This document shows, piece by piece, positions 36,740-39,083 of a stretch of 64,000 bases of DNA. A program made the position numbers and the translations under genes. This stretch comes from Gammaproteobacteria bacterium (GTDB lineage: Bacteria > Pseudomonadota > Gammaproteobacteria > JAJRRL01). The DNA lies in NCBI GenBank assembly GCA_024279495.1, contig JAJRRL010000003.1, forward strand, positions 2,323 to 66,322. Direction: 5' to 3'. The notes under the pieces are model-generated. The model did not search any database. It worked only from the letters and a program-made list of their open reading frames with translations, and was not told the origin of the DNA. The number at the start of each line of letters is the position of its first letter. Positions within the stretch are counted from its first letter, which is position 1.

Positions 36740-37105
36740 ATGGCATTACTTTGGGTGTTTCTAGGTTGTGGTATCGGAGGCATGCTTCGTTATTGGGTCT
36801 CTGTGTTGTTGCGCGCTCAAAGTTTTCCTTATGCAACGCTTATTGTGAATGTCAGCGGCTCTTTTCTCATCGGCTTATTGGCTTCGCTCTTTCTTGCTCG
36901 ATGGAATCACTTAAGCTTTTTAAAGCCTTTATTACTGGTTGGTTTTTTGGGCGGCTACACGACCTTTTCATCGTTTTCACTAGAAACCTGGCGCTTGCTA
37001 GAATCAGGCAATCACTTAGGCGCCATCTGCAACATTGCGCTTAGCCTGATACTTTGCCTGTTTGCCGTCTGGCTAGGCTTGTGCTTGGGTCGTCAGATCG
37101 CGTAA
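36740..37105 (+). CDS. crcB: Fluoride ion channel CrcB/Fluc
   Basis: GIGGMLRY and GFLGGYTTFSSF motifs with 4 TM. A perfect RBS AAAAAGGAGG. 121 aa. Confidence 0.8.
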   Translation: MALLWVFLGCGIGGMLRYWVSVLLRAQSFPYATLIVNVSGSFLIGLLASLFLARWNHLSFLKPLLLVGFLGGYTTFSSFSLETWRLLESGNHLGAICNIALSLILCLFAVWLGLCLGRQIA

Positions 37106-37115
37106 GGCTAAGTCT
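37071..37115 (+). repeat. crcB 3'-end segment, copy 1 of a triplicated ~40-bp direct repeat
   Basis: ggcttgtgcttgggtcgtcagatcgcgtaaggctaag, with related copies at 37391-37434 and 39040-39083. Confidence 0.65.
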
Positions 37116-37164
37116 TTTATATCAGCAATCCCCATTTTTGGCCAAAATAGAAGAGCCCCAGCCT

Positions 37165-37244
37165 CTTGTCATTCCCAGGAACGTAGTGACGTAGGGAACC
37201 CAGGCTTGATCCGTTGTACGAAGGACAACTAGGATCTTTCAAAA
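37165..37244 (+). repeat. MITE-like repeat family B copy 4 (diverged)
   Basis: cttgtcattcccaggaacgtagtgacgtagggaacccaggcttgatccgttgtacgaaggacaactaggatctttcaaaat. Confidence 0.75.
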
Positions 37245-37266
37245 TTTGGCTTCAATCCTATTAGAC

Positions 37267-37312
37267 GAAAACTCTCTTCAAAATGCTCATATACTCGCAT
37301 GTACGCTTCGCT
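37267..37312 (+). repeat. Repeat family D copy 2
   Basis: gaaaactctcttcaaaatgctcatatactcgcatgtacgcttcgc. It is flanked by the inverted repeat gacgaaaa..ttttcgtc. Confidence 0.4.
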
Positions 37313-37390
37313 TTTTCATTGACTTTTCGTCTAACCTTGCCTCAAATCTGGGAATTTGATGTAGACTATAAATTTCGTTTATGCATTTTA

Positions 37391-37434
37391 TTTGGCCTTG
37401 TCTTTGGCTTGTCAGATCGCGTAGAATAAAATTC
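37391..37434 (+). repeat. crcB 3'-end-derived direct repeat copy 2
   Basis: tttggccttgtctttggcttgtcagatcgcgtagaataaaattc. Confidence 0.65.
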
Positions 37435-37460
37435 TTTCAAGTGATTTTAAAGGGTGATTT

Positions 37461-39035
37461 ATGAAGCCAGCCATGCCTTTGGCGGAAACCTTATTCGATG
37501 CTATATCAAGCAGTTCTTTAAAATGCGCTAAGCAATTGATTGCAGGAGGGGCAGATCTTGATGCTGTTAATGAGCATAACAGAACAGCGCTTATGGAGGC
37601 TACTTTAGCAGGTGAAGTAGAAATTGCTTACGTGCTCATGAAGGCAGGGGCAGATTTAAATCATCAAGACTCAGAAGGCTGCACAGCAGCGCATTTGGCA
37701 GAAAGGAAATATAGACCTTCAAAATATGATCCTTCAGAAGAGGATTGTCGAGGCTTTTGGTTTTTATTGGAGTTGTACTCTAGGGGGGCAAAGCCCTTCA
37801 GAAACAAGCAAGGCTGCACACCTTTAATGTGCATGCGGGATAAGATTGCAGGCATGAGATTGACGGAAAGGCAGAGTCAAGCTCTTTTTGTATACGAGGC
37901 AAGATTTTATTCATTGCACAAAGAAGAGGCCTATGCCCAATGTTTTCTTACTTCATATGCCACTCTTTCTTATGCCCAAAGATTTTATTCTTGGCAGTTT
38001 TCTGACTATGTCTTTGCTCAAAGCGGTGGCTTCGGATCACCTTGGCTGCCCGATAGCGAAAGGCATGTTTCTCAAGAGATTATTGATTACTTTGCAGGAA
38101 TATTTAAATATCAACGGTTTTTTGTTGCTGTTAGAGTCTCCAATACAGAGGCGTTTCGGGAAATGCTGCCTGATATGAAATCTTGGCTGAATGATTGGAG
38201 CAGGAGTCCTGAGTTGTTGAAGGCATGTATTTTTTCTGAATATTCGGGAAATCGCCAGTTTAAAGCCCTTCGTTTTCTTGTGGAAAAAGGTTTTGATCGC
38301 TTTCGTTATTGGGGATCCTCCGGGGGAGATGATGTATCAATATTGGCCTCTGTTTTCATTAACACCTTACTGCCGGCTGATGTTGTGAAAAAAATGGTTC
38401 ACCTTTTTTTGTTTCATGGGGCAGATCCTGCTTATGACTTTAAAGCAGAGGCTTATGTGCGATCTCTTGTAACTTCTGAGATGCGTGAGCACCCAGAGAT
38501 AGCAGCTTTTGTGAGGGCGGTTGATCCAGTTTTTAAAGCTGTGAACACACCAGATAAAACAAACATTCTTGACCTTGCTTTGAGACAAGTGATGTTGCCA
38601 GAAAATCAAGCGCTGATGGCGAAAGCTTTAGCATTGAACACTACATTGCAAAGTGGTGATAAGGATCTTTCTTTTAAGGCTTTGGTAGGTCGCTTGAAAC
38701 AGAAGAAGCTAAGCTTTTTTGCTAGTAATAGATTACATCGTTTAGTGATGTTAGCAAAAAATCAAGTGCTTAGAAGGCCGAGGTCACTGACACTGACAGA
38801 AGCTGAGAAGAAGAAAGTCAATGGACTAATGAAAATGTTATGCATGGCTGAGAAGAAGGTGGATTTATATCAAGCCATGGCAAATACAGCTGGGATGGGT
38901 TTTCAAGAAGAAATTGCGGTAACAGATTTTCAAAGGGTATGGCGAGATCACTGGGCGAGGAAAAGCCTTTTTCAGAGTGATGAATCCAAGGAAGTTTCCT
39001 CTTCAGAAGTGCAAGTTGTCGAAGCAGCCTTTTAA
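37461..39035 (+). CDS. Ankyrin-repeat protein (524 aa). Eukaryote-like candidate type IV effector.
   Basis: N-terminal ANK repeats (..GADLDAVNEHNRTALMEATLAGEVEIAYVLMKAGADLNHQDSEGCTAAHLA..). The remainder has no known domain. Confidence 0.75.
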   Translation: MKPAMPLAETLFDAISSSSLKCAKQLIAGGADLDAVNEHNRTALMEATLAGEVEIAYVLMKAGADLNHQDSEGCTAAHLAERKYRPSKYDPSEEDCRGFWFLLELYSRGAKPFRNKQGCTPLMCMRDKIAGMRLTERQSQALFVYEARFYSLHKEEAYAQCFLTSYATLSYAQRFYSWQFSDYVFAQSGGFGSPWLPDSERHVSQEIIDYFAGIFKYQRFFVAVRVSNTEAFREMLPDMKSWLNDWSRSPELLKACIFSEYSGNRQFKALRFLVEKGFDRFRYWGSSGGDDVSILASVFINTLLPADVVKKMVHLFLFHGADPAYDFKAEAYVRSLVTSEMREHPEIAAFVRAVDPVFKAVNTPDKTNILDLALRQVMLPENQALMAKALALNTTLQSGDKDLSFKALVGRLKQKKLSFFASNRLHRLVMLAKNQVLRRPRSLTLTEAEKKKVNGLMKMLCMAEKKVDLYQAMANTAGMGFQEEIAVTDFQRVWRDHWARKSLFQSDESKEVSSSEVQVVEAAF

Positions 39036-39039
39036 GCCG

Positions 39040-39083
39040 CTGTTGGGCTTGTGCCTGGGTAAGCAGATAGCGTAGAATAAGCG
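39040..39083 (+). repeat. crcB 3'-end-derived direct repeat copy 3
   Basis: gctgttgggcttgtgcctgggtaagcagatagcgtagaataagcg. Confidence 0.65.

Follow-up and report, generated by a model that had tools for sequence, protein, structure and literature searches.

Why should the end of one gene be found three times at a single locus, with two of the copies on either side of another gene? The question is raised by a stretch of 64,000 nt from a Gammaproteobacteria bacterium (contig JAJRRL010000003.1, positions 2,323 to 66,322 of the forward strand), referred to below as the window. In it the 3' end of the fluoride channel gene crcB recurs twice downstream, once before and once after a gene for an ankyrin-repeat protein (ank). 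An earlier interpretation, made by inspection of the letters (the sequence-only reading), had proposed two successive insertions at the same target, of a miniature inverted-repeat transposable element (MITE) and then of ank, each with a long target duplication, or alternatively an integron-like capture. We hold, with about even confidence, that the three copies (c1, c2 and c3) were left by two duplicative insertions, one following the other, at the junction between crcB and lysAC, a lysC-lysA fusion. This junction would originally have measured about 30 nt from the crcB stop to the lysAC start.

All three copies consist of the last 33 nt of crcB and 5 nt of its flank, and all are in register. 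They form the top direct-repeat family of the region 36000-40000 and family D4 of the whole-window repeat scan. Over 38 nt, c2 and c3 are 76% identical, while c1-c2 and c1-c3 reach 68% each. Local alignments in contexts of 300 nt scored 21 (c1-c2), 23 (c1-c3) and 20 (c2-c3), well above shuffles of the same alignments (means 9.4-10.0, standard deviations 1.1-1.3, maxima 14-17). The tails of 61 window open reading frames (ORFs) of at least 100 aa were each compared with their own 4 kb downstream. The crcB tail was the sole outlier, with 25 of 33 matches, found twice; the mean of the best matches was 18.8 (standard deviation 1.4), and the next best after crcB was 22. The 17-mer CAGATCGCGTAGAATAA (up to three mismatches) is present only at c2 and c3, with 0.13 occurrences expected by chance. 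The three-copy consensus of the tail is TTGGGCTTGTGCTTGGGTCGTCAGATCGCGTAGAATAA. Repeat search, formal alignments and shuffles agree that the crcB 3' end is present three times, essentially at the coordinates originally proposed. Likewise, c2 was confirmed to lie directly 5' and c3 directly 3' of ank: the interval between them consists of the ank gene with 31 nt from the end of c2 to the ank ATG and 7 nt from the ank stop to the start of c3. The lysAC ATG follows 25 nt after the end of c3. A tblastn search of the window for other crcB fragments recovered only c3. The features of the locus are listed in the table.

Features of the crcB-ank-lysAC region and of the repeats found in it (positions refer to the window)
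Feature	Position	Strand	Remarks
ftsI-like penicillin-binding protein gene	33168-34829		
567-aa ORF	35023-36726		No Pfam match
crcB, fluoride channel, 121 aa, intact	36740-37105	+	Pfam CRCB, E 8.6e-28; TAA stop 37103-37105
Copy 1 (c1), working crcB tail	37073-37110	+	Last 10 codons, stop, 5 nt
Non-coding stretch, crcB to ank			355 nt
MITE-like repeat, family B	37125-37260	+	blastn of spacer against window, alignments
MITE B, further copies (n=5)	7058-7141, 7238-7321, 19560-19650 (reverse), 26156-26319, 29647-29810		
Family D unit	37261-37366	+	Core CTCATATACTCGCATGTAC at 37286-37304
Copy 2 (c2), decayed crcB tail	37392-37429	+	
Ankyrin-repeat (ank) gene, 524 aa, single-gene cargo	37461-39035	+	Pfam Ank_2, E 9e-11
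Copy 3 (c3), crcB tail relic	39043-39080	+	No indel
lysC-lysA fusion (lysAC), aspartokinase / diaminopimelate decarboxylase	39106-41646	+	Pfam

The boundaries of the copies are not alike. The block common to c2 and c3 is 38 nt long with sharp bounds. For c1, weak homology with the other copies may reach across 37042-37127. Extensions to the left of the 38-nt block are in register and individually non-significant (p 0.21-0.26), and the resulting estimate of about 85 nt is not relied on. To the right, the 3' flanks of c1 and c3 resemble each other (14 matches in a span of 18-19 nt with one gap, p=0.034; c3 flank 39077-39095), and the right flank of c2 is unlike both. The sequence-only reading had regarded c2 and c3 as closer to each other than either is to c1. 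This holds only by virtue of the 5 nt past the stop, whereas the coding 33 nt are equidistant (8, 8 and 9 differences).

Read in the crcB register, c1 gives ..AVWLGLCLGRQIA with the C-terminus ..WLGLCLGRQIA, c2 gives ..AFYLALSLACQIA with the tail LALSLACQIA, and c3 gives ..KPLLGLCLGKQIA with the tail LGLCLGKQIA. The C-terminal pattern of the CrcB family, W-[LI]-G-[VIL]-x-x-G-[RK]-Q-[LI], was defined on 120 homologues, with W111, G113, G117 and R118 as invariant columns, and c1 conforms to it. Since the ending GLCLG.QIA* was found in none of the 119 other CrcB homologues, c3 is taken to derive from the crcB of its own lineage, neither from a distant gene nor from a dispersed repeat. Private changes were polarised on the three-way consensus. 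In c1 they are silent (Leu TTG->CTA, stop TAG->TAA), its 3' flank excepted. All four private codon changes of c2 are non-synonymous; three of them alter conserved residues (G113A, G117A, R118C) and the fourth replaces Cys by Ser. Copy c3 has two synonymous private changes and one Arg->Lys exchange. Because the changes in c1 are silent and those in c2 all non-synonymous, c1 appears to behave as the working end of the gene and c2 as a neutral relic. With a divergence of 13-16% per copy, the footprint should be fairly old.

According to the explanation that we prefer, DNA would in each event have been inserted just past the crcB stop, with the target stretch duplicated on both sides. This stretch would comprise ten or more codons from the end of crcB, the stop codon and some bases of flank; its length would be about 38 nt in the one case and 32 nt or more, possibly up to about 85 nt, in the other. 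One insert would be a composite of MITE B and family D (between c1 and c2), the other the 1.6-kb ank cassette (between c2 and c3). Thereafter c1 would have remained under CrcB coding constraint, c2 would have decayed, and c3 would have become the upstream sequence of lysAC. Insertions at such a tight junction could survive because the duplication leaves crcB and lysAC each with an intact copy, lysAC retaining the original 38 nt upstream of it, and at a junction of about 30 nt any duplication of 40-90 nt would copy the crcB tail. The boundaries of the two events would nearly coincide, without site specificity, because tolerated insertions are confined to these 30 nt. We presume that the MITE came first and ank second. 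An insertion of ank into the downstream copy left by the MITE predicts the sharp c2-c3 block, the likeness of the c1 and c3 flanks and the deviant flank of c2; the star-like tree of the three copies gives no proof of this order. Thus, of the original proposal, the two insertions with long target duplication are the best fit to boundaries and flanks, and three further repeat-insert-repeat structures speak in the same sense, while the sequence of events is plausible but not provable.

The interval between c1 and c2 contains a family B MITE and a family D repeat, as had been noticed from the letters and as is now borne out by blastn, alignments and the core pattern. Apart from these repeats, at most about 30 nt of unique sequence is left. 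Because MITE B and family D fill the interval, it is explained directly by MITE insertion with target duplication. The family D unit forms a hairpin with arms at 37261-37283 and 37312-37334 (-15.5 kcal/mol, z -4.2). Its core, CTCAYRTAC-N3-5-TGTAC, occurs three times in the window against 0 expected, and in none of the 95 fetched loci. The MITE-like family measures about 85-165 nt and has two hairpins, TGTCAyCCyCAGGAA..GACGTCGrGGrC and GTTGTTAC..GTAACAAC. Its members (7058-7321, 19425-19650, 26156-26319, 29647-29950 and 37125-37260) occupy numerous intergenic regions, frequently directly 3' of genes and adjoining orphan ORFs.

The same anatomy is seen elsewhere. All three family D cores of the window lie within direct-repeat brackets, and two of the three show a clean succession of repeat, insert and repeat. 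At the first of these, repeats of 53 nt (19193-19245 and 19335-19387, 94% identical) bracket an insert of 89 nt. At the second, repeats of 40 nt (29497-29536 and 29618-29657, 100% identical) bracket 81 nt. The repeats begin 5-6 nt past the stops of metQ and yajQ, respectively, and the ends of the family D units have only about 5 bases in common. A paralogous MITE B copy (26105-26200) lacks the family D insert and is continuous across the point matching 29537. Because this paralogue reads through the insertion point, it supports the view that the D unit was inserted with duplication. Within 29492-29622, a long imperfect hairpin (z -2.2) results from pairing between the first repeat and the sequence on the right-hand side of the family D core.

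A third structure was found in a sister lineage, at the locus designated L011. A direct repeat of 52 nt (8837-8888 and 11513-11564; 49 of 52 positions identical; score 46 versus 10 +/- 1.4) brackets a single orphan gene of 801 aa. One of its copies corresponds to codons -31 to -15 of the adjoining gene for a major facilitator superfamily (MFS) transporter. The distal copy continues into the native 3' flank of the MFS gene and into the next gene, as can be read from another sister lineage, L012, in which the locus is uninterrupted (empty site 13930-14180, reverse strand). The L011 copies differ at three positions, and each of these changes, two of them non-synonymous, belongs to the distal copy alone, which is why the resident sequence would have been duplicated and the distal copy would then have decayed. 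L012 carries a split homologue of the 801-aa orphan gene on the opposite side of the neighbouring gene; therefore a gene resident in the clade has moved in L011 too. The targets of these insertions are unrelated in sequence (the crcB tail, the MFS 3' region and MITE arms), and the repeat lengths are 38, 40, 52 and 53 nt, possibly also about 85 nt. Because the targets are unrelated and the lengths vary, the process is supposed to be independent of target sequence, and the crcB locus appears to be one instance of a long-duplication insertion process that recurs in the clade.

How could such duplications arise? We presume that they would be made at insertion, by a staggered double cut followed by fill-in, as for the insertion sequences (ISs) IS1634 and IS1549. 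These are known for long and variable target duplications of 8-514 bp, the mechanism of which is not known (PMC2266710), and theirs is the closest known behaviour. In both cases the flanking repeats are tens of bases long, their length varies from insertion to insertion, and they are copies of the resident target, as documented here by L011 together with L012 and by the repeat lengths at four unrelated targets (38, 40, 52 and 53 nt). In contrast to IS1634 and IS1549, no transposase was detected in the 64-kb window (44 ORFs scanned), the cargo is an ordinary single gene and not an IS, and the cassettes with ank and with the L011 orphan gene lack clear terminal inverted repeats. Inverted repetition between the termini of the ank cassette (37430.. 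on the left, ..39042 on the right) does not exceed AT-rich chance matches, and these termini match neither MITE B nor D. The locus is therefore not assigned to the IS1634/IS1549 type, because the ank cassette is without terminal inverted repeats and the ORFs scanned include no transposase.

Pfam scans covered 44 of the 47 window ORFs of at least 150 aa, and no integrase, transposase or other recombinase was detected among these 44. The Rfam scan of 36400-39200 matched no family. Template switching at microhomologies was not favoured: inspection by eye of the junctions of ank, of the two clean family D sites and of L011 revealed no common microhomology. A diversity-generating retroelement was rejected, with no reverse transcriptase in the window and with differences between copies that go beyond template adenines and include T/C, G/C and C/A at many positions.

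Several points weigh against the two duplicative insertions. Copy c3 is too well kept for a neutral relic: with the stop kept, at most one amino acid change has a probability of 0.024 after five random substitutions and of 6-8e-4 in the unpolarised comparison of c1 and c3 with its eight substitutions. Such preservation hints at constraint, be it on a promoter or on the once-coding tail of another allele; we regard it as an unexplained mild anomaly and not as proof of a foreign allele. The copies are only 68-76% identical, so that identity at birth cannot be shown for the crcB locus. The searched collections hold no close relative, and thus no empty crcB-lysAC site (nearest LysAC 70%, nearest CrcB 62% identical). 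Two events on nearly the same block come free with an attachment (att) site, while here they need selection on a junction of 30 nt. Finally, the ank cassette has neither recognisable terminal inverted repeats nor similarity to the MITE families, and there is no known transposition system that has been shown to have moved it.

As to relatives, a scan of genome contigs with LysAC returned only relatives of at most 42% identity, and protein clusters at 90% identity contained no second member for CrcB, Ank or LysAC. The sister lineages L011-L013, in which LysAC is 70% identical, have no crcB between ftsI and lysAC and therefore cannot serve as an empty site. At 67 metagenomic crcB loci with downstream sequence, all of them distant (38-57% amino acid identity), the tail repeat was not found in any; the maximum of 21 matches in 33 equalled that of the upstream control. 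Four CrcB neighbourhoods were looked at individually (L094, L095, L099 and L100), and neither L094 nor L095 has a crcB tail repeat. In L095 (256-8593), a Legionellales-like contig, crcB is followed by a gene for a U-box protein and, 5 kb on, by a Toprim/DUF927 primase of the kind typical of integrated mobile elements; the 8 kb of available sequence contain no crcB tail repeat.

The strongest alternative is an array of att sites. Two circular elements carrying mimics of the crcB 3' end would have integrated in succession, each by a single crossover of Campbell type, with a site-specific recombinase acting in trans or with RecA, and would have decayed to integrase-less remnants resembling cis-mobilizable elements (CIMEs); c1 would be attL, c2 a hybrid att site and c3 attR. 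We consider this rather unlikely, the assignment of the three att labels included, although it retains a considerable probability on account of the register and the good preservation of c3. The array accounts for three in-register copies that include the target gene's 3' end and restore its reading frame, with crcB left intact. A native tail that had been coding up to the integration and was then displaced should show silent or conservative private changes like those of c3 (p=0.024), and in c2 and c3 the CrcB-like coding ends at the same codon, with loss of the invariant Trp111. SCC (staphylococcal cassette chromosome) arrays at rlmH are a further case of tandem accretion.

Two precedents come closest to such an array. 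The first, standing for elements that integrate at gene 3' ends in general, is the prophage e14, at icd/icdC, where a duplicated C-terminal fragment carries conservative changes (PMC13626634). Here as there, the C-terminus of the target is duplicated beyond the insert, the target is intact and the changes are mostly silent or conservative. However, e14 has 15 kb, its own integrase and precise excision, whereas the present inserts measure 0.3 and 1.6 kb, no recombinase was seen, and analogous scars are found at unrelated targets. The second is the formation and accretion of CIMEs at the 3' end of target genes (PMC5704250). ICESt1-type CIMEs resemble our locus in having three in-register repeats and two modules without integration genes 3' of a conserved gene (PMC5704250). 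They differ in that CIMEs have recognisable backbones belonging to integrative and conjugative elements (ICEs) or integrative and mobilizable elements (IMEs) and one att sequence across strains, whereas crcB is not a recurrent att site (67 loci) and one of the modules consists of MITEs only.

Further results do not suit an att array. Neither an integrase nor a decayed backbone is seen beside the presumed att sites: the intervals hold MITEs only or ank only, no integrase is encoded by the 44 ORFs scanned, and an 'element' made up of MITEs is awkward for a decayed integrative element. Recurrent use of one att sequence is indicated neither by the 67 distant crcB loci, all lacking the tail repeat, nor by the literature, in which no paper names crcB as an integration site. 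Moreover, analogous structures in the window and in L011 are located at unrelated targets, which is unlike the action of one site-specific enzyme, and the ank homologues of sister lineages are without such repeats. Insertion with duplication is preferred because of the MITE-only interval, the flank pattern, the unrelated targets, the lack of a recombinase and the fact that crcB is not a recurrent att site.

A second alternative sees in c2 and c3 the last remnants of displaced crcB alleles or tandem paralogues, the bodies of which were replaced by incoming DNA in homology-anchored illegitimate recombination or lost by deletion within a tandem crcB array. The 33 positions of c1 and c3 contain 8 differences and only one amino acid change, a conservative one, suggesting that both were coding during divergence, and c3 has the lineage-specific GLCLG.QIA* that is absent from the 119 other homologues. 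We nevertheless judge it improbable. tblastn revealed no further crcB fragment in the window, and two independent truncations to nearly equal remnant length are needed. Polarisation of the changes weakens the case for constraint on c3 to p=0.024. In L011, the differences all belong to the relic, as expected of a duplicated resident sequence and not of a foreign allele.

Third, the likeness of c2 and c3 might have been kept or created by function as a promoter module of the form TTGnnn-18-TAGAAT in front of ank and lysAC, and would then be no insertion scar. A promoter-like TTGTCT-18-TAGAAT is predicted in c2, 34 nt upstream of the ank ATG, and by eye c3 can be read as TTGTGC-18-TAGAAT, so that hexamers with 18-nt spacing are found 28-34 nt upstream of both starts. 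All private changes of c3 fall into the spacer between the hexamers, and no terminator was predicted in 36500-39300. However, the six promoter-like sites found are no enrichment over the 4.1 +/- 2.1 expected, the -35 hexamer of c3 matches at three of six positions, and by a combinatorial estimate five changes would avoid the hexamers 13% of the time. A promoter alone also cannot explain a full 33-nt match to the crcB frame, and we regard it as highly improbable as the origin of the copies. A promoter role is compatible with insertion and duplication as a reason for retention rather than as the origin; it may be speculated that the copies act as promoters, which would explain the preservation of c3. 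A conserved terminator was also considered and rejected; the weak hairpin with a T-run after c3 is no better than shuffles.

In the integron-like capture offered by the sequence-only reading, the repeats would be attC-like sites of a cluster of attC sites lacking an integrase (CALIN). The locus shares with integron cassettes a single gene between repeated sites, oriented as its neighbours, and the left edge of c3 coincides exactly with a heptamer of GTTRRRY type (GTTGGGC, 39042-39048). The capture can nevertheless be discarded with near certainty. This heptamer is missing at c1 (GCTAGGC) and c2 (TTTGGCC) and is judged a coincidence. The three sites do not form attC-like hairpins (folds no better than shuffles, z -0.03 to +0.28), and the 140 nt upstream contain no RYYYAAC inverse core. 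The repeat is situated not at the 3' end of the cassette but right of the point at which crossover would occur, and it is plainly the coding sequence of the neighbouring crcB. No intI was found in the window, nor any integrase among the 44 ORFs.

What, then, was inserted between c2 and c3? The Ank protein has two ankyrin repeats at residues ~4-83 (Pfam and PDB sequence search). Its C-terminal ~434-440 aa are almost orphan, as judged from a search of 5.8e9 proteins and from one of 1.84e9 representative proteins, the latter with only three remote relatives. One homologue, P0362, is full-length and 27% identical and is encoded between a response regulator gene and a cinA-like gene (L096, 1759-3378). 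Another, downstream of sspB (L097, 9757-10279, the same as L098, 9535-9813), has an internal deletion and is a degraded pseudogene. Two of the three relatives stem from samples that also yielded the sister lineages identified with LysAC. The family thus looks clade-specific, fast-evolving and mobile, with a different locus in each of three lineages. There are no flanking repeats at the loci of the ank homologues in the sister lineages, and for this reason the repeats are assigned to the crcB site and not to the ank cassette. The Ank protein of the window is unrelated to the one that L012 encodes at the equivalent position. With two ankyrin repeats and an almost orphan body, Ank is a putative effector.

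The surroundings belong to the core chromosome. The window contains RNase P RNA, metG, metNIQ, the dcw cluster from mraZ to lpxC, and secA, and orphan ORFs are interspersed among these core genes. The lysC-lysA fusion belongs to the dcw cluster, where it stands between ftsI and a pair of inverted genes, MFS and murE (positions 31229-58152 of the window, set against L011 and L012). In the sister lineages the order ftsI - [variable] - lysAC - [variable] - MFS(-) - murE(-) - murF is conserved. In the window, the slots flanking lysAC are occupied by the 567-aa orphan ORF, crcB and ank on one side and by Fic/GlnA-like genes on the other; in other lineages they hold AbiEii or AAA_14-DUF4143/Ank. As the variable slots hold different genes in each lineage, both flanks of lysAC may be regarded as hot spots of gene flux. 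The crcB start is located 14 nt past the stop of the 567-aa orphan ORF, and the two are probably co-transcribed. No fluoride riboswitch was found upstream of crcB (36600-36740) by Rfam scans at gathering thresholds and at E<=1.

Some further features of the window may be mentioned. Three successive large ORFs of 814, 858 and 787 aa (20849-28955) are without Pfam match. A 38-nt repeat (22967-23004 and 24899-24936, 74% identical) hints that the 814- and 858-aa ORFs are paralogues, and MITE B copies are found 3' of the second and third (858 and 787 aa). A 29-nt palindrome, ATAATCGCTTCATATTATGAAGCGATTAG, is present in two tandem copies (41842-41870 and 41875-41903, 93% identical) directly upstream of, or overlapping the start of, a DUF4172-Fic gene (41879-43036), and has an operator-like look.

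Intracellular bacteria of the order that includes Legionella and Coxiella carry hundreds of lineage-specific effector genes, the entry and movement of which have mostly been deduced from composition and phylogeny. The crcB locus provides base-level scars of a gene of host-interaction type and a MITE entering a tight junction in a cell-wall gene cluster. If it is an ordinary decayed att array, it is a tidy but unremarkable example. Tentatively, and with more doubt than confidence, we propose that a deep-branching Legionellales-like clade possesses an undescribed process that relocates single fast-evolving host-interaction genes and small non-autonomous repeats. It would act at tight junctions and duplicate about 40-90 nt of target independently of sequence, so that the end of the upstream gene and the control region of the downstream one are both preserved, on cargo with neither terminal inverted repeats nor a resident recombinase. 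If one mechanism is at work, it would explain how genes can be inserted harmlessly into the very tight junctions of essential clusters, here dcw, and its scars would provide a simple sequence signature by which recent gene gains in such genomes could be dated and counted.

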